DNA of 45,896 nucleotides. It comes from Moniliella sp. 'wahieum' (taxonomy: Eukaryota). Below are positions 3,854 to 45,896 of this stretch, piece after piece (position 1 is the first letter of the stretch; the number at the start of each line of letters is the position of its first letter). Made by a program: the position numbers and the translations under genes. The stretch is taken from NCBI GenBank assembly GCA_003971905.1, contig RSEE01000074.1, positions 310,001 to 355,896 of the forward strand, read 5' to 3'. The notes beneath the pieces are model-generated. The model was not told the origin of the DNA. It saw only the letters and a program-made list of their open reading frames with translations, and searched no databases.

Positions 3854-4762
3854 GCCACAACAATGCATGTTAACCCGGACCCAGATGTACCTGTCCCAGA
3901 GCGTGCACCGTCAAAGCTGCCGCAGGCCACTGGTACGCGGTTGTTGTAGCTGTCCGCCCAAACGGGCCCGTCGGGGCAACCGTCTCGCCGTGCACTACAT
4001 GGTTGCCTCCGCGTCGACTCGTCGGTCATCGACAGCGTGTGACGCGCTCCCTCGTCTGACGTGCTCTCGTGTGCCAATCACGTTGGTACCAATCTGGCGT
4101 TGGGCCCACACTCCCCTTCAAGCTTCATTCATCCTCCGACGACGTGAAAGGGCCACGGTAGCCTCTGGTAGCCCACCCTCGAAACGAAGCTGTAGGCAGA
4201 TGCCAAAAGCATGTCGGCTTGCAGTGGTGGAAAGTGTTGGGGAGAGTAATATGCTTGAACGGGAACATGACATGAAAGTAGCGGCCGAAGCCATGGAGAC
4301 GGCTGTGACATGTGACGGGTGAGCGTGAGCTGGCGTGGCTAGTGTGACATGCGGCATGTGACTGGTGCTGGGAACGGCCTCATCGCATCTCCGAGGGTTG
4401 GTCATTGAGCCATGAAGGGTGTAATTACTGTGGCCCTCGGAGACAGACGCTCCAGCGACGCAGCGCAGCCGTGCGGTCAGGCAGAGAGAGCTGAGCCCGA
4501 GCACAGAGCGGCTGAGTGCTGGCTGAGGCGCAGCACTCCGAGCACGTGATGTGACGTCCACCACATGCTACACTGCCCCGTGCGTCTTCCTTCCGCCGTG
4601 CTAGCGGGGTGCAAGTGGCGCATAGGAGGCATGCCTGACGCCTGAGTCAGGCCATCCGTATATGCCTGAGCCAAAGCGCAATGACAGCACGTGTCCCGCC
4701 ACACCCGCCCCTCACCACACCCCCCTCCCCTCCACCGCCACTGCTGTCGCCCCATTGCCACC

Positions 4763-5235
4763 ATGGCTACCGAGCGCACCCCGCTCGTCATTCCTCCTCC
4801 CGCCCACGGCATCTCGCCCCGCAGCCCCTGCGTTCTCAAACCTGGCCCGAGCCCCGCACTCCCGTACACAACGGCAGCCTCGCGACCGCTACCGCTGCCG
4901 AGGCCGCTGCCCTAGCCGCCGTGCAGGGCAACTGGAACGGCCCTCACACAGCACTGGCATACGTCTATGCCGCTCGGAGGCGACAGCGGCAGCGCAAACG
5001 GAGAATCCAGCGCATTGCGCTCGCATGCTTCTTTCTCGTGATTGTCTACCTGACCACGCTCCACCTTGCCGCGCTCTATGAGCGCCACTGCAGCGTCGAC
5101 GTTCCTAGCCATCAACGCGGACGCTTTTGCCCCCCTGCCGACTGGAACATTTCGCAGGCAGCTCGGCCGCTGAAGCCGGGTGATTATGGCATGAAGTTGC
5201 TCCCGTCCCGCCTCAACACAACAACTGAAAACTAG
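4763..5235 (+). CDS. Small type-II single-pass membrane protein, unknown function (one frameshift)
   Basis: ATG in CCACCATGG context giving MATERTPLVIPPP (acidic dileucine-like ERTPLV). After a frameshift: basic RRRQRQRKRR, hydrophobic IALACFFLVIVYLTTLHLAALY and a short Cys-containing tail. Confidence 0.6.
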
Positions 5236-8567: not shown

Positions 8568-10970
8568 AGAGAACGTGTTGGTGAGGAGAGAAGGTGAGGG
8601 GAGGGTAGGGGGGAGGGCCAAGGGGGTGGGGAAAGAGCAGCTTATATAGATGTGGGCTGGATGTAGACGAGAGCAGCCTAGAATGAAGAAGACTCTTCTT
8701 TCGCGGGCTTCTGGCTTCATTGTACGGTACGGGTGCAGAGGGGAGAAGTGCCTTGCAGGCAGGCAGTAGCGCAGTGGCACAGCCCGCCGAAGTGGGTCAG
8801 GGCGTCCAGGTGTTGTGTCCCTCACTTCTCAGGCGGAAGCCGCACTGGTTCACGAGTGATCGTCACGCGTCACTAGTCACTAGCCACTGCCCCATAGTCA
8901 CCGTAATTCAATAATCGCTGTCTTGTGTTGCACACGATGCGCGTGTGGCACCGGTAGGCATGGGGCCAGTCATGGGTGGGCTCGAGCCGCTTGGCTTGCC
9001 TGGGCCGGCATGGCAAGTGGCCCCAGGCGGCAGGGCAGTGTGTGATGACTGATCGGCAGGCACCTTCTTCGGCTTGACTAGCTTGGCGACCCCAGGCTAT
9101 CCCCTGTAGCGCTGCAGCACAGGCCACTAGCTTTACACCGGGCCTAAGGGATGTGAGCGCACGCGCTACAAGCCCAACGGTTGCACCCATGCCTGTTGGG
9201 GTACGTTGGGATTCTCGCGTCGAACTCACCGTGTACTGTACCATGTACTGGCTACTGGCTCCTTCCGCTACTCGTCTGCTAGCCTCAGATCTCAGATTCT
9301 CACCGGCCATCGATCATCCGCTCAGCGCTCAGGATTTCAATTGATCTGCCGATCAGCAGCGGCACCACAGGTGCTCGCAGCACGATACTGGCGCTGTGCC
9401 CCTTGCGGTTTGTTTGTAATGTGCGACAGGCCAGCCATGGGAGGAGGCGCAGAGGCACTGCATGGTCTCACCATGCACAGACCAGGCATTGTGTGAATTC
9501 ATACCTTGGGCCATGCTGCGTCCACGTGCCCCGTCGTAGCCCAGCCGGCACAGCTTCCTGTTCCACTGCGATCCAGTCCATGCACCATGCCTCAATCTGG
9601 CGTCGTCGCGCATCACGCGGCACGAGTCACCGCGGCACCTTTGTGGTCGCGCCCCACTGGAGTCACTAGTCACGCGCACGCGCCACTGATCACTGATCAC
9701 TGGCACCAGTCACTCACGTCACGCGTCACGTGAAGAGCTTGAAGCTTGAAGCTTCCCTTTAGAGCCTGAGGGCATCAGTACCATCAGTACTCAGTACACC
9801 CAGTACTCGGTATTCATATTCAGTACGCTTCAGCCAACCTTCCGCTCTGTGCCCACCTTGTACTCAGTACCAGCCGCTAGCCGGTACCAGCCCTTGGGCC
9901 TCCTGGGCTTCCCTGTGTCGACGGCATGCATGATGCATCATGCATGATGCATGGTGTGACAAGCCGCCGATCTGTCTTCAAGCTTCAAGCTTGAAGCCAG
10001 AAGATGAAGCTGGCTTGGCGCTTGAAACTCTTGAAACCCCCTGAGGCACAGGCTTGAGGCGCTCAGGCCTGAAGCTTGAAGCTTGAAGCTTGCCGCGTGA
10101 AATTCGGATGTAGGGTGGGGCATACGTGTGGGGCATACATACTGCATCGCAGAAATATGCAATCCACCGGCCGCATTCCATTCTCTCAATACTTCTTCGA
10201 TACGACCAAATCGATGGTCTCATCGATAGAGTTGCACTGACTCGACCATTATTCTGTGGTGTGGCTTCCTGACAAAGCACGTTCCACTGTGCATCGCGCA
10301 TCGAGTATCCCAAACCAGTAACAATTCGCACCCATTCTTCTCGGAGCCCTGTGGGTTCCCCAATGGCGCGCTGGATGCATGTGATATGGACAAGGCAGAG
10401 ATTGTCGATTGCCAGTAATCGGTAATACCGGTTACCGCTTGCTTCTTCCCTTTTCTGATGCATGATGCGTTGATTGTTGTAGGTTACCGGTTACCGGCTA
10501 TCCTTATAGCCGCAAGCGCTACTAAGTGCTAAGCGCTTGGAAGGTCGTTTAGCGGAGAACACCGGTTACCAGATTATTATACCGTGGACGTGGGTGGATC
10601 TGACAGATATCCTACTTGCCGGGGATGGCTTGCACTCAGGGTACTGAGCTCAGTAGTGAGACTCACTACTCCCTCAGGCCTCACCAATCCCCAGTCACAG
10701 TGACGAGCGGCGCGTGACGGTGACTGTGCATGTGATCGGTCCCCCAAACCAGAACGAGGCCCTGCATGGCTCCTGCGCTCCTTCGCCTTCTTCTCTGTTG
10801 GGAGCCGCGGTCCCGTACATAGTAGGCCAAGGCGCCTTTGGCCTTAGGCCTTATCACCGGTCACTCTTCGCCCCTCAGGCCTCATGACCTCATGACCTCA
10901 TGACCTCCGAAGCCTCCACATGTATGCTCAGAGGCTTGTTTGCACCCCTGTCTCCTCTAGGTGTGGCATA

Positions 10971-11116
10971 TGTGGGAAAGCACAACCCCGGGGAAACAGT
11001 GAGAAAAGAAGAGACTCGAACGGAATTCGAACCCATGTCATCCCTATTGGCCAGGGATGCGTTACCACTACGCTATCGAGCCGGGATAAGAGCAGCTGCA
11101 GGATCACAGTCTAACA
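10971..11116 (-). mobile_element. 146-bp solo LTR containing a tRNA-like sequence (TRIM-type), 5-bp TSD GCATA
   Basis: Termini TGTGGGA...TCTAACA, flanked by GCATA at 10966-10970 and 11117-11121. The homologous empty site at ~24110-24125 has one copy of the target and no insert. Confidence 0.85.
11013..11082 (-). pseudogene. tRNA-like cloverleaf within the LTR (non-canonical anticodon loop)
   Basis: GGCTCGA-TA-GCGT-AGTGGTA-ACGC-A-TCCCT-GGCCAAT-AGGGA-TGAC-ATGGG-TTCGAAT-TCCGT-TCGAGTC. All four stems pair. A-box TAGCGTAGTGG, B-box-like GGTTCGAAT and a downstream TTTT are present; U33 and C61 are missing. Confidence 0.8.
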
Positions 11117-12499
11117 GCATAAGGCTTAGAGCGCTTAGACCGGACCACCACCACCGCGATTGCATTGCTCTACATTTCCAGAGGTTCATCGCCCAACCCC
11201 TTGGGTTCCTCCGGTCTTACATTCTCCAAGCCATCGCCCAAACCGTAAAACAAAGTCTTCGCGTACTCTAACAATTAAGATATGGATGTGATCCCATTGA
11301 AGAGTGGCATCACATGTCACAGGTGACGTGCTTCATATGTACGGGTAGTAATATCCGGGCGCAACCTGGCACCACGCGTCGCGCGCCACGCGCGTCACAT
11401 GAGCTCTCCCCGCATACCGCCTGTGCACAATTGAATTGAGTACTGGTACTGAGTACTGAGTTTTTCACTGAGTACTCAGTACCGACGAGTACTCAGAGTA
11501 TGAGTACTGGTACTGAACGTACTGAACACTGGGAAACAAACAGCATGATGCATGATGCATGACTTATATGCCATGAAATCTGTGACAGCGCGGGTGCAGA
11601 TCAATACTGCCATCGTACTAGGTCCTCAAGACTGAAGTACGTGCGTACACTCTCTCAAGGGCCGCGGTGACCGGTGACGGTGATCTGGTGGCCGGCCACG
11701 ATCATCGATGATCGATGATCATTCGTTCGCGCGCGTAACGGTGTAACATTTTTGCTACACAATAGCGCAAAGTACCCACAACAACAACCCCAGCAGTCAG
11801 GCCCTGGGGGTTCAGGCCGGCGTGAGGCCAAGGTTTGAGCCTCAGGCTCCCAGGAATCCATGCCCAGACCTCAGCGCTGAGGCGCTGAACTCAGAGCCTC
11901 GTCAGAGCCTCATCGAAACCAGGAACTGGCATATACTTTCGCGCGTGAACATGATGTGCTTGAACGAGCATGGCCGTGACAGGCTTGGCCTGATATATAC
12001 AAACCCGAAGATGCCAAAGGAAATGACAATAAAGAGAGCAAAAAGGGCAGGTGTCCGATGGTCGTGTCACGAGGCTAGCTGGCAATGCTGTGGCACAACA
12101 GGCAATGGAGATGGGGGTATTTCAGACCTATAAAAAGAAGACCGAGGAGCCACGTGCCGAGTCCGGAGCCGAAAGCCAGTGGAATGCCATGGAAGGTCAA
12201 CAGGGATGCATTTCGTGTGTCGAGCCATGAGTCACTGAAAGCTATTAACTGAACGGCCGATGGATTCGAGACCACTGTGGTGGTCAACAGATCGTCGCCG
12301 GTCACCGACCATCCGACCAGTCACCCCGCTGAGCCTCACTCTGAACGAAAGTAGAGTGTAGCGGAGAAGAGGTGGGAGGAAGGGAGAAGAGTAGGAGGGC
12401 TCAGACAATGCGGGGCAGCGGCCGGGCCTGCGCCTAGGCGGAACCTGGCGGCACCAAGGATGCTAGGCGGCGGATGAATGGAAGCGGCTGAGAGAAGCA

Positions 12500-16739: not shown

Positions 16740-17130
16740 ATGAAGGCTGAGTGTACTGCGGAAGCTAATCTAGTATCCCCCGCTCGTTAGTCGCTTTGGT
16801 TATGGATTTGTCAGGGGGGAAGTTTGACCACGCGAGGATACTACGGCACCAAAAGACATCAGGCAAGATGTATGCGCCTGGAACGATTTGACTACCGACT
16901 CTCAATGGAAATGGTTCCTCTCTCGGATGTCTACCACGTTCATCCGTGTCCACAAGCGCCACCTCGGGTATGGGAACGCGTGACGGGCACCAGAGGTCCT
17001 GATATCCTGGCGATTTCCCTGATTCCAACAGGGGTGGCGCTACCAAGCAACACAAGCAAGATGAACGGGTCGGTTTAGGCGTAGCGTTTCCCAATCCCAG
17101 CCATAAGCTTTGTCAATGTTATGGATGCAG
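16740..17130 (+). pseudogene. Decayed paralog of the C-terminal part of the hypothetical ORF at 22670-23700
   Basis: TRGYYGT..LERFDYRLSMEM..PRVWERVTGTRGPDILAISL..VGLGVAF aligns with TRGYNVT..LEGINYLVAMEM..PRAWKRMEGAREGPALLAVPL..VGLGVAF. An identical 23-mer, GGTCGGTTTAGGCGTAGCGTTTC, is at 17068-17090 (+) and 22726-22748 (-). Confidence 0.8.
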
Positions 17131-18081: not shown

Positions 18082-18996
18082 TCAGGACAGGTCAGGCTCC
18101 TGCTGCAGACCCTTGCGGATCTCAATCAGTAGGTTGGTCTGCCACCCAGCAAACCGCTTAGTCCGATCAAAGTCCTGGACGATGGCGTCAAAGTTTCCAG
18201 GTCGCCAGCCTCGGCAGCCTCCAGGACCGAGTTGAGGAACCTTCCTTCCATAGTCGGGGGAAATGCTGGGTCTTGTTGCGCATAAAACTCCATCGCCCGC
18301 CCACAGGCAACAAAGTCTGGGACAGCAAGGTAGCACAAGCCAGCGTTCAGGTAATAATCCTTCACACTGTAGCGCGTTAGGTTGGACTCGAGACTCATGC
18401 TCGCCACTTTTTCCCATTGCTCGACGGCTTGGGGATACTGCCCCGTTTCTGCAGCCAGTTGCCCCGCTTCCCTCAGACACCCCGAAGCCGTACTGCCGCA
18501 TGTTGTCAGCACATCTCACATTGACAGGGTTAGTTGAGGGAGGACATACGCCTTTGCGCCTTCTTGGAGGTACCAATCCGCAGCTTGGAGGTAAGCCGCG
18601 AGCGCCCTCTCTGGATCCTGCGCTTCGTTCTTGAGTAACTCGGCGATTGCTTTTTGGCGATCGGCTGCCTGGCGGAACTTGCCCTTGGCAAGCAACAGTG
18701 CCACCGTCTTGTCCAGCGCCGCCACAGCAAGTTCCGGACGAACCAGCTTGAACACCTTGCTAGCTTCCCAATAGGTGGTACTGGCGAACTCAGGCTGGCC
18801 ACTCGACTCCTCCGTCTCGGCAGCCTTCATGAACGCATGCCCGCTCTCCTCGTACCGCTTCTCGAGGCGGAACTTGTTCCCGGCGGCCTTGTACAGCTCG
18901 GCCGCATCCTCAAGGTTGGACTGCTTATTGCTGAACACCCGTGGATGACTTGACCTTCTTGTCACCCAGGCGCAGCATCTCTTCGGCACTGGACAT
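18082..18996 (-). CDS. SEC17: Alpha-SNAP vesicle fusion protein (intron 18493-18549; frameshifts)
   Basis: EDAAELYKAAGNKFRL, GKFRQAADRQKAIAE, YLQAADWY, LTRYSVKDYYLNAGLCYLA, QDPAF; GTATGT...GCTGAC...CAG intron; C-terminus EPDLS. Confidence 0.95.
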
Positions 18997-19139
18997 GATG
19001 ATGGGCGGGGTGGAGGAGGAGGTTGCGGTAGTATTAGTGATGGCGATGGGGGTGGCTTGGGTAGAGGGTAGGGCTTGATAGGGCCTGATTAATGATGGTG
19101 CGTGGGGCGCCTAGCAGCCCCTAGCGCGCTCGCAGGCCG

Positions 19140-21800: not shown

Positions 21801-22669
21801 AAGGAAAAGAATGCTCCGCATGAGTCTAGTCCGAGGCTGAACTTTGACCGGTGGCCGCGTATGAGCTCAACGGATCGGAGGCATGTGGGTGCATCTGGTC
21901 TACGTGCTCTGTGTCAACGCCATTATGTATGCCGCTGATCACACATCACACATCGCGCTGTTTTATCCGACTCTCCCCTATGTTCTGCCCCTAACGGGCT
22001 CCTCTCTTGGAGTAGGCTCATCGCCTCTCTCGTTCTCCCTCTCTCTGTAGACCTTGCCTTCTGTTGCACTCTGCAGTCCACCATATGCTGAGTGGCGATG
22101 TGATATAGATATCGGAAGGATCACAGCGATCAAGGCTTACTAATGCGAGGCCGAGGCGAACAAGGCAGCCTGCTCAGTCTGAGCACTCAGTGCCTGCCTC
22201 GCCGTCAATACCCGTGCGTAGCCTCGGCCAACGGGGGGAGCGGATGGCAGACCGAGGAGCGCCAGGCGCGGCTGCGTATCGCCGCTGATGCACGGATGCA
22301 TATCGCCGCGCACATTGCTTGGGTGCGTGGGAGGGGGGCGGTAGCTTGGGCGGGCTCGGACATCGGATGGGCGGCCGATTGCCAAGTCTTGGCATGCACG
22401 TCGCGCTGTCATGCACATGCGTGTCACACGCATGTCCCACACCCCACCGTCACATAGTGACAGTTCCGATCTAACCCGGTCCGAACAGGCTACCCCACAA
22501 CAAGACCAGCGATCGATGATCCGTCAGCTCCCGACCGGTGACCAGTGGCGGGGGTTCCTGTGATGCTGTGCTGGTGTGGCAGGGGTGGCCAGGGCCAGGG
22601 GCACCTGGGGGGCTGGCTAGGAACTAGGAACAGAGGGGCGTTGGAATTGTCTGAATCTTCTCCATGCTG

Positions 22670-23700
22670 TTACATATCAGTGGCCCTGCTATATATCATT
22701 GGCACAGCTTGAGGCGGGTCAAATAGAAACGCTACGCCTAAACCGACCTGCTCATCCGGTGGTGTTGCTCGTTGGGCCACACACCCGTTAAAAGAAAGCA
22801 GAGGAACCGCCAGCAGAGCAGGACCCTCTCTCGCACCCTCCATCCGTTTCCAGGCACGAGGTAGCGTGCGGCGATATGCGGGTGAATGTGGTAGATATCC
22901 GAGCGGTGAACGTTGAATCATCTCCATCGCGACTAGGTAGTTAATTCCTTCTAATGTCCTATGATCATGCTCGCCGTTTTGTCTTGTGACATTGTATCCT
23001 CGTGTCATCGATCATCAATACCAAGGGGGAAGAAGAGTTCTTGGATGCGGCCGTGGTAATATATACTTTTCATGGCGTTCTTGTCGAATTCAGCTTGTTC
23101 CACAACAGCTGAGGAACGGCACAGGGTACGGAGCTGGATTAGGGTTAGAGCCGAAGGCACACTGCTGATGGGATCGAGGAGAGTCAGGTGTGGTTGAGCG
23201 CATTGCTGTGCTCGACATTGCGACCGTCGGCATCGTCGAATTTGTTGAGCAGTTCTTGCCGGCTCGTCCCCATCTCCCGACAGAGCGCTTGCGCTGCATC
23301 GCAAATGGGGGTTCGTCGTGCGTGCTTCTCCAAGGGGGCAAGAAAAGCGGCAATAAGATATTCATTGGTCTCATTGGCCGCAGTACGTCGTGTGTGAGGG
23401 GCAATATACGAGTAACAAAGCGGGCTGCCGCATTCTCCCATTCGGATAGGCAGGGTCATGAGCATGTCAAAGTGATCCTACTTCGTGCCATGGGGTTTCT
23501 GACTTCATCGCTTCGGATCAGTCTGAAATCCGTGCAGATGAAGATGAATGCGCCAATCTCGGCTAACACATCATCCAGATCCCCCTCGCTCTGCGTGCTG
23601 AGCAAGCGGTGCAGCTTTTCTGAGAACCGTACCACCATAGTAATAGGTGCCCCTCCTGCGGAATGGTGATGCCATCAAACTTATGTTGGGCATATGTCTT
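22670..23700 (-). CDS. Hypothetical protein, frameshifted (repeat-associated; unknown family; start uncertain)
   Basis: Overlapping minus-strand ORFs (23456-23638, 23184-23465, 23005-23304, 22670-23008) chain into protein-like sequence. The C-terminal part has a diverged in-window paralog. Confidence 0.5.
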
Positions 23701-24022
23701 TCTGCCTTAGGTTGCCTAACTTGGCTCGGGACCACGATACGATCGGCTACTATCCTCCCCCCCCCACAATAAGCATATACCTAGGACTTCGATCTATCCT
23801 CCCGAATCTGGTCCCGGTCCCGTTCGACACACTGGCGCAGGTTGAGTGCGAGAGGCCAGATGTGTCTTCTTCTAAAATCTCCGCAGCTCGGGGCGGTAAT
23901 GCCTTTACCGCCCTGTCTCTTTTCCGAAAATGCGATGTCGTCTATATAGATAAACAGGGGAGGGAAGGAAGATGGGGGTGGAGGGGACAATGATAAAATA
24001 CCTGGTTAGTACGTACTAGTTC

Positions 24023-24178
24023 TGTAAGACCGGAGGAACCCAAGGGATTGGGTGAAGAACCTCTGGAAATGTAAAGCAATGCAATCGCGATGGTGGTGGT
24101 TAAGGTCTAAGCCTTGTGCCACACTAGAGACAGGGGTTCAAACAAGCCTGAGTATACATGTGGAGGCTTCGGAGGACA
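24023..24178 (+). mobile_element. Dispersed TG...CA repeat (putative solo LTR, copy 2; empty site for the tRNA-LTR)
   Basis: TGTAAGACCGGAGGAACCCAAGGGATTGG...GTCTAAGCCTTGTGCCACACTAGAGACAGGGG...GGCTTCGGAGGACA; highly similar to the reverse complement of 10901-11221. Confidence 0.75.
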
Positions 24179-24432
24179 AATCAGGGGTGAAGCTTGAAGG
24201 GTAATGAGGCGCCTTGGCCTAGTAAGTACGGGACCACGGGTCCCAACAAGTTCAACCCAGCTGCAGAGAAACTTCAACACAGTCAACAACTTTTGGGGCG
24301 CAAGCGGTTCATCATGCGGATAAGAGTTTTTCTATGTCTTGAAGAGAAGACAATGAACTTCGAGGGAAAGCAGCACAGTAGCGTGGCGTAAATCTTTCGA
24401 CGTTGCCAAACCTATGCGTTCCTCTCGCATCG

Positions 24433-25284
24433 TCAACCCTGTTGGCGTTGACCCGAGTCATAAGAGGCCAAAGCCTCTGTCAGCTCCTCGAGGTGCGTTT
24501 CGAAAAGCTCATTGCGGCCCTTGAGCCAAACCAGGAGATCTACCGCTTGGTGCAGGACCGCCGCCTTGGACCCCTCCTTTCCCCCCGCACTGCCACCGCG
24601 GCCACGACCGGGGACCTGAAAGGGTGAAATCCTCTGGTGCTTCAGCCTACAATACAATGCGCATCTTTGACATGTATACGTGGGAACAAGCGGATTTGCA
24701 CGCACTCGTTTTCCCCCACCGTGGCCAGGCAGGGGGGGGAATGGCCAACGTCTCTCCAACACTTCCAGGCCCGGACCACTTCTCCCTGAACCAGGTGCAG
24801 AATCGGCTCCGACTCTTCCTCGTCCAACCGATTGTCCTCGACTTCCAAGTCTACGCCTGTCCCGGCGGCCGAGGCATGCCCAGCGATCGCGCTCCATACG
24901 CTCTCCCCAGCTGCAACAGTTCTCTCACTTCTTCGAGACCGCGACGGATGTTCTCGCGGAGCAGGTGGGATCGCGTTGGGTGCAAACCCTTGGTTTCTTC
25001 CATTGCCTCTTCTTCTCCCTCTTCCCTATGGGTCGAGTCTGGTCTTGATCGCGGCTCGCTGCTGGCAGGGAGGTATAGTTGACCGAACCAAGCTGCGGCG
25101 CCTGCACACAAGCTCGTCCAGCGGCGAGGGGTGCAACTCCGGAGTACCGGGTGCGATGGTACCAAGACATAGAGGAGATGGGCGTATCCGTGCCAAGAAT
25201 AGTAGGCGTATACGCCTCTAACCAGGCCTCAACCGAGTCGAAGAAACCGTTCGGTGCGCGACCGGACTTGCCGTTAGCGCCCAT
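24433..25284 (-). CDS. bHLH transcription factor, Ino4-like with long loop (frameshifted)
   Basis: Basic region/helix 1 HLLRENIRRGLEEVRELL; helix 2 GSKAAVLHQAVDLLVWL followed by a zipper-like RNELFETHLEEL. Confidence 0.6.
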
Positions 25285-36436: not shown

Positions 36437-36901
36437 GGGAGCAGGGAATGGTGAGGGCGGCGATGGGGGCGATGACGGTGGTGGCGGTGGCGGTGGGAAC
36501 AGACAGCAGAGGTGGCACCGCTGCTGCAAATATGGTACTCGCCCAGCGCGCAAAACAGCAAAGTGGGTCGCCATTGAAATTGCACCCGCGATCACTGGCC
36601 CCATGCTGCGTTGCCCCCTTCGATGATGCAGATGACGCGATGACTGGCCTCGTGCGCGCGGCGCCCACCCAAGGCGCAGGTTATGGTCTCGTGATTCTTC
36701 TGTGTCTTCCCGAAGATGGTGCCGACACAATCACCCCCCTCATATACCGACATCCTCAACTACTTCCACATCGTCGGATGGTGGATGAAATCCATACATA
36801 GCCATGGGAGAAGAACAGACAAAACACGATACGACGGCGCTAATAAGGAAAAGCGACTGCCAGATGGCACAACATTGGCTCGGATAGCTACGCCCGGCGA
36901 G

Positions 36902-39900
36902 TTAGGCAAGCCGCAGCGCGTCGACCAGTAGCTGGTCCAATGCTTGGTCCACCTGCTTCAGGTCCTTGTCCATCTGCAGGTACCGCGCCGAGATGGGGGG
37001 AGGCGACACGCCCGCGCCGCGCCATTGGGCGAGGCCAGGGTGACCACGGTGCTCAGGGGCGGGGCAAATAGATGGACAAGCATCGCCTCTGGTCCGCCCA
37101 TTCCGCCGACTTGTAGCGCTTGCTCGGCCTTGATCGACTGAATGTCGGGCCAGGCACCGTCCGAGAAGGTGGATGACCACCCAAGTGTCGGGGTCATCTC
37201 TACCATTCGAGAGATGCGCCGGCTTGTCCCCATAAAGCTGCGCGAGTCGCGCTTGGACAGCGAAACGGCGCTGCCTGGTCGCACGGACGGGTGAGCAGCC
37301 GCGTCCATCACGGCATACAGATGGTCAGGCTCAGGGGCCCAGCGTGCTCCCAGCCCCTGAGCGACGACCGGTCCCATCCGAAGGGGGAGGGGTCGAGACG
37401 TCGGTCTTGGTGACACCGCCTTGTGAACTCAAAGTCCGCCGATGACCAACGGATCCGGCCGGCGCAGTGACAGGTGTTATGCGACTTGAGATAGGGGACG
37501 GGCAGAAGAGTTGGGCGGGGAAGCAAAGGACGGCGACATCACCTGTTGTGACCGAATCGAGCCTGACCCGCCCGAATGCGTGACGCGGTGACCGGCGAAG
37601 CTGGAGGGCGGGCGTTCGAACAACAGGGTTGGAGACACTGCGTGTACTCCCCAATCCAGACATTGGCACAGGCGCCGAAGGAGGCGCCGAAGCAGACACC
37701 GAAGCAGACGCAAGGGAGGCGAGGGGCTCGAGGCCGCTCTTACGGCCGCCACCCCAGCAGCCGCCCCAGCGGCCAAAGCGCCCGCACCAGCCGCCACAGT
37801 CCCAGCGTGCGCGTCCTCCTGACCAGGAGTAGAACTCGGGGCGGGGCTGGCCGAAGTAGAGATGTATGCGCCTGGCACATCCAGGACCGACGTGGCAGCA
37901 GACCTGTCCTCACCCTGTTTTGCCTCATTTGGTTCCGTCAACAGTTTCTGTGTCCGCCCCGGACCCTGGAAGAGGAGGGCGACGGGGGGTGAGTGGTGCG
38001 ACAGGTTCCAGAGCAGAAGTGGGGTTGTACCTCGGTAGCATGGTCGGAAATGTGGCCAGAAGGCAAGGCAGAGCTCTCCTCACCCACATCGCTTTGTGTG
38101 GTCATGGCTGCAATCGAGCAAATCCCATGTCCTGGGAGGAAGGACGGGGGGACGAGCCGTGCGTGTCCTCCTCCGTTCCGTCCATCACATGGTCCAGGAT
38201 GACATTGATATCGTCGCCGTCGTCGTCGTCAGAGGCAAAAGGGTCACGACCTAAGTTGGTGGGATCCTGGTCAACAGTATTGGCTTCTCGATTCTCTCCC
38301 CGTGCCGAGGAAGCAACAGCAGCCGTGCTGGCACCACCTGCCGCTTCAAGTGCCAAAGCACGAGCTTTAGCACGCTGAGCCACGATCATTTCATGTGTCC
38401 GCTCTTGCGCCGTGGCGGAATGAGGCTGCTCATTGGAAGCCTGAGTGGGAGGCTGTGGTGCCTCCTGACCCAAGGGAGCCGAGCTAGAGACTGCCTTGTT
38501 AGGGTCCCGCATACTGGTCTCGCTGCTCCCCGCATCCCGCATCATCGAGTCAGAGTAGGTCCGAACCAAATCGAGTTGGCTCCTACGCTGGGCATCGCGC
38601 TTGGATGCCAATGCCCGCTCGGTCGGACTCCAAGCCCGAGCGGTACGACTGATGGGTGCACTGAGGCTCGATTGAATGTGCTGTTGTTGTCGGAGAATAA
38701 GGACAGGGTCGGTGTTGCGCATGTCAGCTAGATGGTGAGCATCGTGCTGTCCAAGCTTCGACGATCCATCCCGCTGGACGAGTCGCGTGCAACGTTGCGC
38801 AGAGCAGGGGGCGATGGAAACGCCTCATATACCACCGAGTTGGGGCGAAGGTGCTGCTCGTTGTCGCCAGTGTCAAGCGTCAAGCCATAAGGGATCGTCA
38901 CCTCGTCCTCCTCATCCATGCCGCCTGGTTTCCTCCTCATCTCCTCCTTCAACAACACCTTGAGGGATGCCAAACTTTTCTAGGGCCAGTTCAATCGCTT
39001 CGGCAACGGTTGTGGTGCGCGGGATAGCCAGCACCTTTTCTCGATAACGCGGGTTGACATCCGATTGACCGCGATTTGTGCTCCCTGAGCTCCCGTGACG
39101 GGAAAGGCTGGAGAGCATGGTCCGACGCACAATGGCGGAACTAGATGGGTCAAAGGCGAGGGAACGAGGCAGCTCGTCGGGGAAAATGAGGACGCGCACA
39201 CCGAACCGCATTGCCGCTTCCGTGTCCGCTGGCCTAGGTGGCCCTGTAGAAGATGCCGCGACCGAATGAGCAGATCCACTGTTACCATGCCAGGACGAGT
39301 TCGGCGCGTGAAAGAACTTGACGGCATGGTCGTCGCTGAAAATGGTTGAGCTTGGTAATGGCCGACTTGGCGCTCAGATTGGACGCCACAGATGATATGG
39401 AGCCAACGCTGGAGCGCCGGACGGAGGGCATGAGCGCATTAGCCTCGTGCTCAGTAATGTGTTCATAAACCTTGAGTGGGACCTCGTCGGGGGCGAGAAT
39501 ACGCTCCTCCCCATCGACCATGCGCATCAGCAGGGCGAAGTCAACCGGGCCATCGGTACCAAGGCCATCTCCGCTCGTACTAGTGGACTGAGCTGAACGA
39601 CGGCGAATACCAAACCGCTGAACTGCCTGCTTGACGATCTCGTGTGCTGTCGTCGTATCGTTGAGAAGGACGGTCTTGTACGTTGCGCTGATATCGAGTT
39701 CAGGAGCGGCAAAGACGCGCAACACGTTGAGCATCGGCACCGATACGTCGCCTCGAGGGATAACCAAGCTACCGGGCCGAGGCCGTCCGGAACCTGAAGC
39801 GGACGGCCCGCCGGACCCGGACGATGGAACCCCTCCATAGATGGACAAATGACGGCTATTGTCAGGCTGCAAGGACGTCCGCGGCGATCGCGGTGGCACG

Positions 39901-43528: not shown

Positions 43529-43609
43529 CGAACGACGCAGGGGTCGAACCTGCAACCTCCTGATTACAACCAGTCGTAGTCAGACGCGCTACCATTGCGC
43601 CAGCCGTCC
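43529..43609 (-). tRNA. tRNA-Arg(ACG) with a 9-nt intron
   Basis: GGACGGC-TG-GCGC-AATGGTA-GCGC-G-TCTGA-CT-ACG-A-[CTGGTTGTA]-A-TCAGG-AGGTT-GCAGG-TTCGACC-CCTGC-GTCGTTC-G; T6 terminator ~20 nt downstream. Confidence 0.93.
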
Positions 43610-43889: not shown

Positions 43890-45896
43890 TCAGCATCCCC
43901 CGCACCCGCCTCCTCCTCCGCCACCGCCACCGCATCCACCGCCACCGCCACCGCCTCCGCATCCACCGCCGCCGCCTCCTCCCACATCCACCAGCTGAGG
44001 AGCACGCGCTGAATCCACCCACCGAGCGCATGCACCACCGTTCCCACACCCGCCCGCGCCCAGCACCCCCACAGGCCCCCGCCACACATGCGCCCACACT
44101 TCCGGCGCCCATGGCAGCACACGCAGGGTTGCACGGGTACATGCCCGATCCTGAGCCGGCGGTGATGCATGGGTCGGGGTAGTAAGGGGCGTAGTAGGGC
44201 ATGTAGATCGGGTAGATGCCCCAGGCCATCGCGGTGGCTTCCGACTCGCCCCGCCTGCGTTTCTCGTCGGGCGAGGCGACAAGTAAGCCGCGCTTGTGCA
44301 AGCGCCGTTGGGCAGCCTCGGCCTTGGATACGAGCCGACGATGGCGTACTTCTTCTTTGCGCAACGCCGCACGTCTCCCTCGGTCGGCACAGCGTTGTGG
44401 GCCGAGATGTGGGCGTTGCGTTCGGGATTGTCATGGTGGACGTTGGGATTGGAATGGAGAGCGTCCGAGTTGGTTCGTGCGTGCGAGGCGGTGGAGGAGG
44501 AAAATAAGAGGGCAGGTGAAACGCGGCTGGTCTGGCCTTCCCGGACCGCTTCGCAGTACCAACACGTACACTCCGAGTAGGGCTGACCATTGGTCAACTT
44601 GGTATAGCGCTTCGACGTCAACTCAAACGCATCGCTCAACCGACCTGAGGACCTTGTCGTCATGGTTGATCATCCGCTGCATATGGTGCACCGTGTAACA
44701 ATAGTACCGTGCTGGGGCGAGCTGATGCGTGTGCCAGGCCAAGTCGACGTCAAGCGTCGGCACCGCCATGTCACCAGGGTACTTCTTCATGATCAAGAGA
44801 AAGACTGAGTACTTGTCGATCAGACGCGTCATGGTTTGGTCCAATGCAGGCGAGTGCAACCAATCAATCTCGTCCATCTTGCGGACAAACGTTCCTTGGC
44901 GCAACACGGCCCCCACCAAGTCCAACCCAAACGGAGACGAATTTTCCCAGTACCGCGACATCATGGACCGAATGCTGACGCGCCGTGCAATGGCCACATC
45001 CCGCCGGACTGGTTGGGAGCCTCCTACCTTACGTAGCGTCGCACGAGAGGCGCACCCTTTTCGAGCACATACCGCACGTCGTTGATGGTAAGGTGGGGGT
45101 AGGCATTGAAGTCGAGCTTTTCTCCCAACGTCATTGGGACCCCGTCCAACAAAAAGTGGCTCCCATACGACTGTCGCATCACCATCGACGGCTCGTGCGG
45201 CGGATGCCCATCAAACGGGAGAATGGTCCCAGGCATGGCAACCTTGGCCGTGAAAGTTGACTGTAATCGGCACGGAACTTGGCCATCCGCAGATCATCGT
45301 GCGTATGCGATAGCTGCATGACGCGCAGTTAACAAGAAAGTTCGTATCGGTAAACCCTTGGTAGCATCGAACCACGGCTTTCGAGTTGCCCAAGGGCCCC
45401 CGGTGGCCCAGGGGACTTCCTGCTGTTGTGTGCAGCGCGGACACTGGATCTTCTTGCCTCTCATCTTGTTGGTTGCGCCAGAGACAGCCAGTGGCCTGTT
45501 CGAAAGCCTCAGCGCCTCGGCGGGAGGGAGGTAATCGAGCGAATCGTTGATGCAGGCGTCAATCAAAGCCCAGGGGAACCCCACGTTCCATACCCGCATG
45601 TGGGCCGTACGGAGACAGTCTTCGAGATAGGTAATTGGATTGAGGCAGAACGCGTGCCAGACCATCAACACGTCGAGGGGCGGTAAGTTGTTCTTGGTCC
45701 ACAGTGGCGGGTCGGATGATGTCCTGGTACTCTTCATGGCATCGGCCAAACCAGTGGGATGGTCGACAGTCCACTGTGATCACAGGCCCCGATGACGGCA
45801 AGCAGTACTCCAAATCGCTCGAACCGATCGGCCGCTCGCGCCACATACACTACGCCCACCGTTTCTCCGCATCACGCGAGGGCCTTGTTGCGATCG
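43890..45896 (-). CDS. Glycine-rich domain-containing protein (GRDP/DUF1399-like), 5'-truncated, frameshifted
   Basis: LPPLDVLMVWHAFCLNP, YWENSSPFGLDLVGAVLRQGTFVRKM, VPTLDVDLAWHTHQL, HDDKV, YSECTCWYCE, HISAHNAV; C-terminal GGGGCGGGG tail. Confidence 0.88.

Follow-up and report, generated by a model that had tools for sequence, protein, structure and literature searches.

A tRNA-bearing solo long terminal repeat, probably of Helenus type, nested in another solo long terminal repeat of a basidiomycete genome

Cassandra elements, plant TRIMs (terminal-repeat retrotransposons in miniature) whose long terminal repeats (LTRs) carry a module derived from 5S rRNA, were reportedly described by Kalendar and co-workers in 2008. 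Each Cassandra LTR holds the RNA polymerase III (Pol III) promoter and the terminator of a small-RNA gene, and the transcript runs from the 5' LTR to the 3' LTR, according to the available text of a more recent survey (PMC10886601). That survey applies the name Helenus to a TRIM with a tRNA-derived Pol III promoter module in its LTR, also termed 'TRIMp3' (Kojima, 2024, Biology 13:119, PMC10886601). Full Helenus elements are described there as two LTRs around a short interior with a PBS (primer-binding site) and a PPT (polypurine tract), for a total under ~1000-1300 bp; in the fungal rows examined of Table S1, the LTRs measure 106-284 bp and the target-site duplication (TSD) is 5 bp; in fungi, solo LTRs with 5-bp TSDs are common, and Copia elements are argued to be the partners (PMC10886601). 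Here we describe a 146-bp TG...CA unit that contains a tRNA-like cloverleaf, at positions 10971-11116 of a 45,896-nt stretch of contig RSEE01000074.1 from Moniliella sp. 'wahieum' (the whole of this stretch is called the window, and all coordinates refer to it). With a probability of roughly 0.68, we interpret this unit as the solo LTR of a Helenus-type TRIM, i.e., of a non-autonomous LTR retrotransposon that would work on the same principle as Cassandra.

The 146-bp unit entered a solo LTR that was already in place and belongs to another family, duplicating GCATA. On the plus strand it starts with TGTGGG and ends with CTAACA, so that the minus strand reads TGTTAG...CCCACA, and the GCATA duplication around it is still perfect. 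The host repeat is found twice in the window (copies A and B), and when 10786-11231 was compared to the reverse complement of 24013-24258 (MAFFT; also blastn), the aligned blocks were ~90-91% identical (blastn), with copy B lacking exactly 151 bp (146 + 5) and showing a single uninterrupted GCACA where copy A has GCATA-insert-GCATA. Given the base frequencies of the window, an arbitrary indel would have TG..CA ends with a probability of ~0.0038, and TGT..ACA ends with a probability of ~1.7e-4. The tRNA-bearing 146-bp insertion is confirmed as real and cleanly delimited. The features of the two sites are as follows (coordinates, strand where one applies, and feature, with the basis of the call in brackets).

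10966-10970: left target-site duplication, GCATA (sequence; a single GCACA in copy B)
10971-11116, minus strand: solo LTR, 146 bp (absent from the paralogous host LTR copy B; single-copy within the window)
11117-11121: right target-site duplication, GCATA (sequence)
11083-11116, minus strand: leader of 34 nt, element positions 1-34, starting with TGTTAGACTGTG (putative U3)
11012-11082, minus strand: tRNA-like cloverleaf of 71 nt, element positions 35-105 (putative R start and internal Pol III promoter)
11065-11075, minus strand: A box, TAGCGTAGTGG (exact match to the consensus TRGCNNAGTGG)
11023-11033, minus strand: B-box-like motif, GGTTCGAATTC (GGTTC core present; one mismatch to the consensus GGTTCGANNCC, T for C61)
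11004-11007, minus strand: T4 run in TTCTTTTCTCAC, element positions 110-113 (putative weak Pol III terminator and R/U5 boundary)
10971-11003, minus strand: tail of 33 nt, element positions 114-146, ending with CCCACA (putative U5; includes the palindrome CCCCGGGG)
10796-11221: copy A of the host solo LTR, 426 bp with the 151-bp insertion counted in, TGTTGG...CTTACA on the plus strand (ends match the limits of similarity to copy B)
10791-10795 and 11222-11226: copy A's own target-site duplication, TTCTC (sequence)
24023-24248: copy B of the host solo LTR, 226 bp long and in the opposite orientation to copy A (blastn, MAFFT)
24018-24022 and 24249-24253: copy B's own target-site duplication, AGTTC (sequence)
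24115-24119: unoccupied target site of copy B, reading TGTGC on the plus strand, i.e., GCACA in the orientation of copy A (alignment to copy A)

The repeat hosting the insertion is a solo LTR itself, and the locus is therefore a case of LTR-in-LTR nesting. Similarity between copies A and B stops exactly at TGTTGG and CTTACA, beyond which the flanks are unrelated, and each copy is a TG...CA unit with a perfect, independent 5-bp TSD of its own, i.e., this genome has made the same type of insertion at each of them. With the 146-bp unit, this brings the independent TG...CA/5-bp-TSD insertions in the window to three, one of them nested in another, and an LTR-type integrase has therefore been active in this genome and solo LTRs have been left behind. 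It can also be said that the insertion of the 146-bp unit is younger than host LTR copy A. An initial annotation of this DNA had described the 146-bp TG...CA element with its perfect GCATA duplication, and had called the insertion integrase-type; both statements stand, the latter on the evidence of the TG...CA ends, the 5-bp TSD and the empty paralogous site. The empty site itself, with its single target and no insert, is likewise borne out by our alignment, but the paralogous repeat had been placed at 24023-24178 and in fact extends over 24023-24248, and the nature of the host repeat as a pair of solo LTRs with their own TSDs had been overlooked.

As for the host LTR family, its two copies are ~226-275 bp long without the insert, lie in inverted orientation and are 12.8 kb apart. 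Relative to copy B, copy A carries an additional 14-bp insertion plus a (CCTCATGA)n-like microsatellite (cctcatgacctcatgacctcatgacc) at 10838-10900, and a short tandem duplication (AGCGCTTAG, 11131-11139) that adjoins the insertion site. An open frame of 127 codons on the plus strand (10888-11268) spans the host LTR and the inserted LTR, and could be mistaken for a gene by callers of open reading frames (ORFs).

The tRNA-like portion makes up 71 of the 146 bp of the element. It was recognized by Rfam (RF00005, 11012-11082, minus strand) over the full model (1-71), at 47.2 bits where the gathering score is 29 and with a whole-window E of 4.2e-7, as the sole Rfam match within 10600-11400 at E <= 1, and by ARAGORN as a tRNA-Trp(cca) at 11011-11082 on the same strand. 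All four arms are intact in the ARAGORN cloverleaf: the acceptor stem has 7 bp (one G.U), the D stem 4 bp, the anticodon stem 5 bp and the T stem 5 bp (two G.U). The A box and B-box-like motif were matched against consensus motifs, and the T4 run lies 5-8 nt past the tRNA-like end. When folded alone, the 71-nt module has the cloverleaf as its minimum-free-energy structure (-24.6 kcal/mol, z = -1.95, with 9 of 200 shuffles folding as well), whereas the whole 146 nt gave no structure beyond the cloverleaf when compared to shuffles (z = -0.05). Two 8-bp palindromes lie outside the module, GCAGCTGC in the leader (11092-11099) and the one already listed in the tail (10986-10993).

U33 and the G53-C61 pair are near-universal in tRNAs, and a functional tRNA-Trp would be expected to have both. 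The 11012-11082 module has neither: its anticodon loop, GGCCAAT (nominal anticodon CCA), has a G at position 33 instead of U33, and its innermost T-stem pair is G53.U61, not G53-C61. Because of this G33 and G53.U61, and because the predicted anticodon arm of the 71-nt fold can extend to 7 bp and leave a 5-nt loop, we argue that the tRNA-like module is a promoter relic and not a decoding tRNA. For most Helenus families, the tRNA-like part was likewise concluded not to be a working tRNA (PMC10886601). The cloverleaf with its A box, B-box-like motif, TTTT and GGCCAAT loop without U33 had all been noted in the initial annotation and are confirmed by Rfam, ARAGORN and motif matching, with the strand now clarified as minus; its comparison to a fungal Helenus group with tRNA-like LTRs and 5-bp TSDs was also correct (Kojima, 2024, PMC10886601).

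One ordinary tRNA gene lies elsewhere in the window (43529-43609, minus strand, Rfam 49.6 bits); its anticodon loop is interrupted by a short intron. Termination by fungal Pol III needs T runs longer than four, and a T6 run is located ~20 nt downstream of this gene, vs. T4 in the LTR. This single comparison (n = 1) is consistent with the T4 of the LTR acting as a leaky stop. The isotype of the ordinary gene differs between ARAGORN readings, i.e., Val-tac if no intron is assumed and Ser-act if a non-canonical intron of 9 nt is, while a reading by eye with a canonical 37/38 intron gives the loop CTACGA/A, i.e., Arg-ACG.

Compared to the Helenus LTRs in the available text and supplement of the survey, the element shares the tRNA-derived sequence with A and B boxes, the 5-bp TSD, the TG...CA termini, a length (146 bp) within the fungal range, a TGTT(A/G) start and a short tail ending in ACA, as well as a basidiomycete host and the solo state, which is frequent in Helenus. 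The layout is also the same as judged by eye: printed Helenus LTR consensus sequences start with TGTT(G/A), followed by a variable leader and, near the 3' end, by a tRNA-like part in the same orientation, then within a few bases by a short run of usually four T, and end with a tail of ~10-45 nt terminating in ACA (PMC10886601). Among the LTR records of the Helenus consensus file, a TG start is found in 226, a TGTT start in 102 and a TGTTAG start in 9 (PMC10886601), the last being that of our element. Its first 20 nt agreed by eye at 16 positions with the LTR start of Helenus-7_PSt and at 14 positions each with those of Helenus-2_CCin and Helenus-9_PSt, and the 11-mer CTTTTCTCACT around the T run is also found (by eye) in the LTR of Helenus-3_PSt. 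Differences are apparent as well. The host here belongs to Ustilaginomycotina, whereas the fungal Helenus published in that survey come from Pucciniales and three Agaricomycetes only (PMC10886601), and the element here, known from a solo LTR alone, has a compact, full cloverleaf of 71 nt with the nominal anticodon CCA.

Several observations weigh against the Helenus-type interpretation. Units of the TG...CA type that are 80-600 bp long and flanked by a perfect duplication of 5 bp are no more frequent in the window (136) than in 30 first-order shuffles of it (139.5 +/- 11), and termini plus TSD therefore prove nothing by themselves; the case for an insertion is made because the breakpoints of the empty site coincide with TG/CA, together with the tRNA score. 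No second copy of the 146-bp element was found within the 45.9-kb window (blastn with word size 7; self-blast), where the matches were chance ones of 10-17 nt. Its A-box region reads TAGCG...TGG, i.e., it has a G where the A boxes of most Helenus have the Y of TRGCY (PMC10886601), with YGG and GGTTC both present, and its B box has a T in place of C61. Five words of 9-13 nt from the tRNA-like and terminator parts had 0 matches in the Kojima supplement, and the word TGTTAGACT occurs there once, internal to another LTR and not at its start (PMC10886601). Homology to catalogued Helenus families thus appears limited to short terminal similarities judged by eye. Finally, the window contains no two-LTR copy, PBS or PPT, so that we infer TRIM status from a solo LTR, and no reverse transcriptase or integrase domain was found in any of the 104 window ORFs that reach 130 aa.

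From the lack of word matches it follows that the element is no near copy of any Helenus consensus published in the survey, and it is plausible, from the sequence comparisons available, that its family is uncatalogued. A narrower count of TGT...ACA units with a 5-bp TSD returned seven in the window, including the three LTRs; the remaining four (4304-4870, 21884-22162, 24159-24651 and 37475-37622) have neither similarity to the element nor a repeat partner, and were rejected as chance occurrences.

If the unit is a Helenus-type LTR, a full element would be expected to work as follows. By analogy with Cassandra and Helenus as described in the survey (PMC10886601), Pol III would initiate on the tRNA-like module in the 5' LTR, read through the weak T4 run of that LTR and then through the PBS, the short interior and the PPT, and stop once it reaches the T4 run in the 3' LTR. 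R would extend from the beginning of the tRNA-like part to the T run, U3 would be the 34-nt leader and U5 the 33-nt tail. For copying and insertion, an autonomous element would provide reverse transcriptase and integrase in trans; judging from fungal Helenus it would be of Copia type, and the TGTT...ACA ends of the element agree with such a Copia partner. A later recombination between the two LTRs would have left the solo LTR between its TSDs.

Other explanations can be proposed for the same sequence. The one to which we give most weight, while still considering it unlikely, is that the unit is the solo LTR of a larger and possibly autonomous retrotransposon, driven by Pol II and containing a tRNA-derived piece, rather than of a TRIM or Helenus. 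Ordinary Copia and Gypsy solo LTRs such as the yeast delta and sigma have the same TG...CA ends, 5-bp TSD and origin by LTR-LTR recombination, and the host repeat in the window is of this ordinary kind, but such LTRs have Pol II signals and lack a cloverleaf. A solo LTR is uninformative about the interior of its element, and 'not a few LTRs' in Repbase are described as having tRNA-like sequence, with only some of them classed as TRIMs (PMC10886601). Against this stand the very small size of the LTR (146 bp) and its layout, in which a complete cloverleaf with Pol III boxes fills half of the LTR and a T run follows directly, as in the Helenus consensus sequences consulted; the missing reverse transcriptase and integrase in the window count as neutral in this respect. 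We consider it improbable that the polarity is reversed, i.e., that the host LTR family originally contained the 146-bp segment and copy B lost it by deletion between short direct repeats (GCAYA); the tRNA-bearing LTR would in that case be the host LTR itself. Two host copies do not fix the ancestral state, deletions between 5-bp microhomologies occur, and copies A and B differ by further indels, but the deleted block would then start with TGT and end with ACA by chance (P ~1.7e-4 to 0.004), and would also mimic a complete Helenus LTR layout including the TGTTAG terminus.

Less probable again is a tRNA-derived short interspersed nuclear element (SINE2) inserted by the machinery of a non-LTR retrotransposon. 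Such elements are short and non-autonomous like ours, with a tRNA-like head carrying an internal Pol III promoter (A and B boxes) and a TSD, but they start at the 5' end of the tRNA-like part, end with an A-rich tail or one related to a long interspersed nuclear element, and have TSDs of variable length. Here, the TSD is exactly 5 bp, as in both neighbouring LTRs, the termini are TG/CA, and the tail ends with CCCACA, without any A-rich or simple-repeat run. Moreover, 34 nt precede the tRNA-like start inside the TSD-bounded unit, and a SINE-type transcript from an internal Pol III promoter cannot carry this leader, whereas LTR reverse transcription regenerates it. A miniature inverted-repeat transposable element or other DNA transposon was ruled out as well, the terminal inverted repeat being merely TGT/ACA and no internal 8-mer repeat being found. 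We find it hardest to believe that the module is an ordinary, functional tRNA-Trp gene between chance direct repeats: its score is far over the Rfam cut-off and ARAGORN names its anticodon, but it sits in a block absent from the paralogous LTR, departs from near-universal tRNA positions (G33 for U33; G53.U61), and has a T4 stop compared to the T6 of the other tRNA gene in the window. We thus retain the solo LTR of a Helenus-type TRIM as the best explanation, in line with the tRNA-LTR TRIM proposed by the initial annotation. In terms of known systems, it would differ from Cassandra by its tRNA-derived module (type 2 promoter, vs. the type 1 promoter of 5S rRNA), and Cassandra elements are plant elements of 565-860 bp.

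The window as a whole is gene-rich, intron-containing eukaryotic DNA with a G+C content of 56.9%, and Pfam domains in its ORFs include Helicase_C, fasciclin, SNAP/Sec17, AFG3-type m-AAA protease, MatE, MGM1-type dynamin, RA domain and GRDP-like. In its AAA exon, the AFG3 homologue shows 86-90% identity to counterparts in Malassezia, Ceraceosorus, Exobasidium, Microstroma, Tilletiaria, Tilletia and other basidiomycetes. Among the seven matches of the Sec17 exon, Tilletiaria anomala (68%), Violaceomyces palustris (63%) and Tilletia walkeri (60%) come before the next named organism, a Microbotryomycete (48%). Judging from these protein similarities, the host is a basidiomycete of Ustilaginomycotina, and the protein collection searched holds no named organism close to it. 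The same Sec17/SNAP exon (18519-19088, minus strand) has a 141-aa counterpart, 90% identical, on an assembled contig of 1 kb; as the best named relative reaches only 68%, annotated public proteomes seem to be lacking for the source species or a close relative.

Further searches with the element gave little. The 48-aa frame of the element, scored within the 127-aa ORF, returned 2 candidates, none at E <= 10, from a collection of 5.8 billion protein clusters. Against 1.84 billion protein representatives, the 48 aa had one match (E = 3.5e-4), rejected as a repetitive and unrelated sequence of 237 aa. Since non-coding LTRs are rarely found in protein sets, these searches carry no evidence for single-copy status. 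A 23-mer over the B box and acceptor end had 0 matches in prokaryotic genome contigs, as expected for a fungus, and this result is uninformative.

Beyond the LTRs, the self-comparison of the window returned one other repeat, a 45-bp inverted match between 17046-17090 and 22726-22769 (87% identity). Two GGN/GCC-rich stretches (36450-36496 and 43915-43986, with runs of GGTGGCGGTGG) form imperfect inverted repeats, 73-77% complementary, which are probably low-complexity Gly/Pro-rich coding or simple sequence and not a structural repeat.

Ustilaginomycotina, smuts, Exobasidiomycetes, Tilletia and Malassezia go unmentioned in the available main text and supplement of the Helenus survey (PMC10886601). 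Repbase LTRs were the starting point of its screen, which was then widened only to relatives of genomes that had proved positive (PMC10886601), and absence from Ustilaginomycotina was therefore neither claimed nor tested there. The literature searched, including the consulted parts of Helenus papers from 2024 onward (e.g., PMC12859917), likewise holds no report of such elements in this subphylum. Most likely, then, what is new here is a Helenus-type solo LTR in a subphylum without such reports in the searched literature, while the kind of element was already published in 2024 (PMC10886601), and ideas on how such elements work are unchanged by the finding. It is tempting to go further and to see in this locus the first Helenus-type Pol III-promoter TRIM of Ustilaginomycotina, with att-like termini (TGTTAGAYTGTG...CTTTC(CC)ACA) still resembling those of families from Pucciniales and Agaricomycetes, and with both the tRNA-LTR lineage and its Copia partner inherited from the common ancestor of Basidiomycota, but we regard this as speculative and rather doubtful. 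If true, the tRNA-LTR lineage would be far older than the ~130 My proposed for Pucciniales, instead of having had several origins, and the nested LTR-in-LTR site would capture, as a snapshot from nature, how a Pol III module can be delivered into the LTR of another element.

For genome annotation, tRNA-like LTRs inflate tRNA gene counts: the module within 10971-11116 passes both Rfam and ARAGORN as a tRNA-Trp, and recognizing such elements averts false annotation. For the biology of this organism, a filled and an empty site, both clean and within the same window, document LTR-integrase activity in its genome together with the three independent 5-bp TSDs. If the family is multi-copy, the range of Pol III-driven TRIMs would be widened to a third basidiomycete subphylum, which would bear on whether Helenus had a single or a repeated origin.

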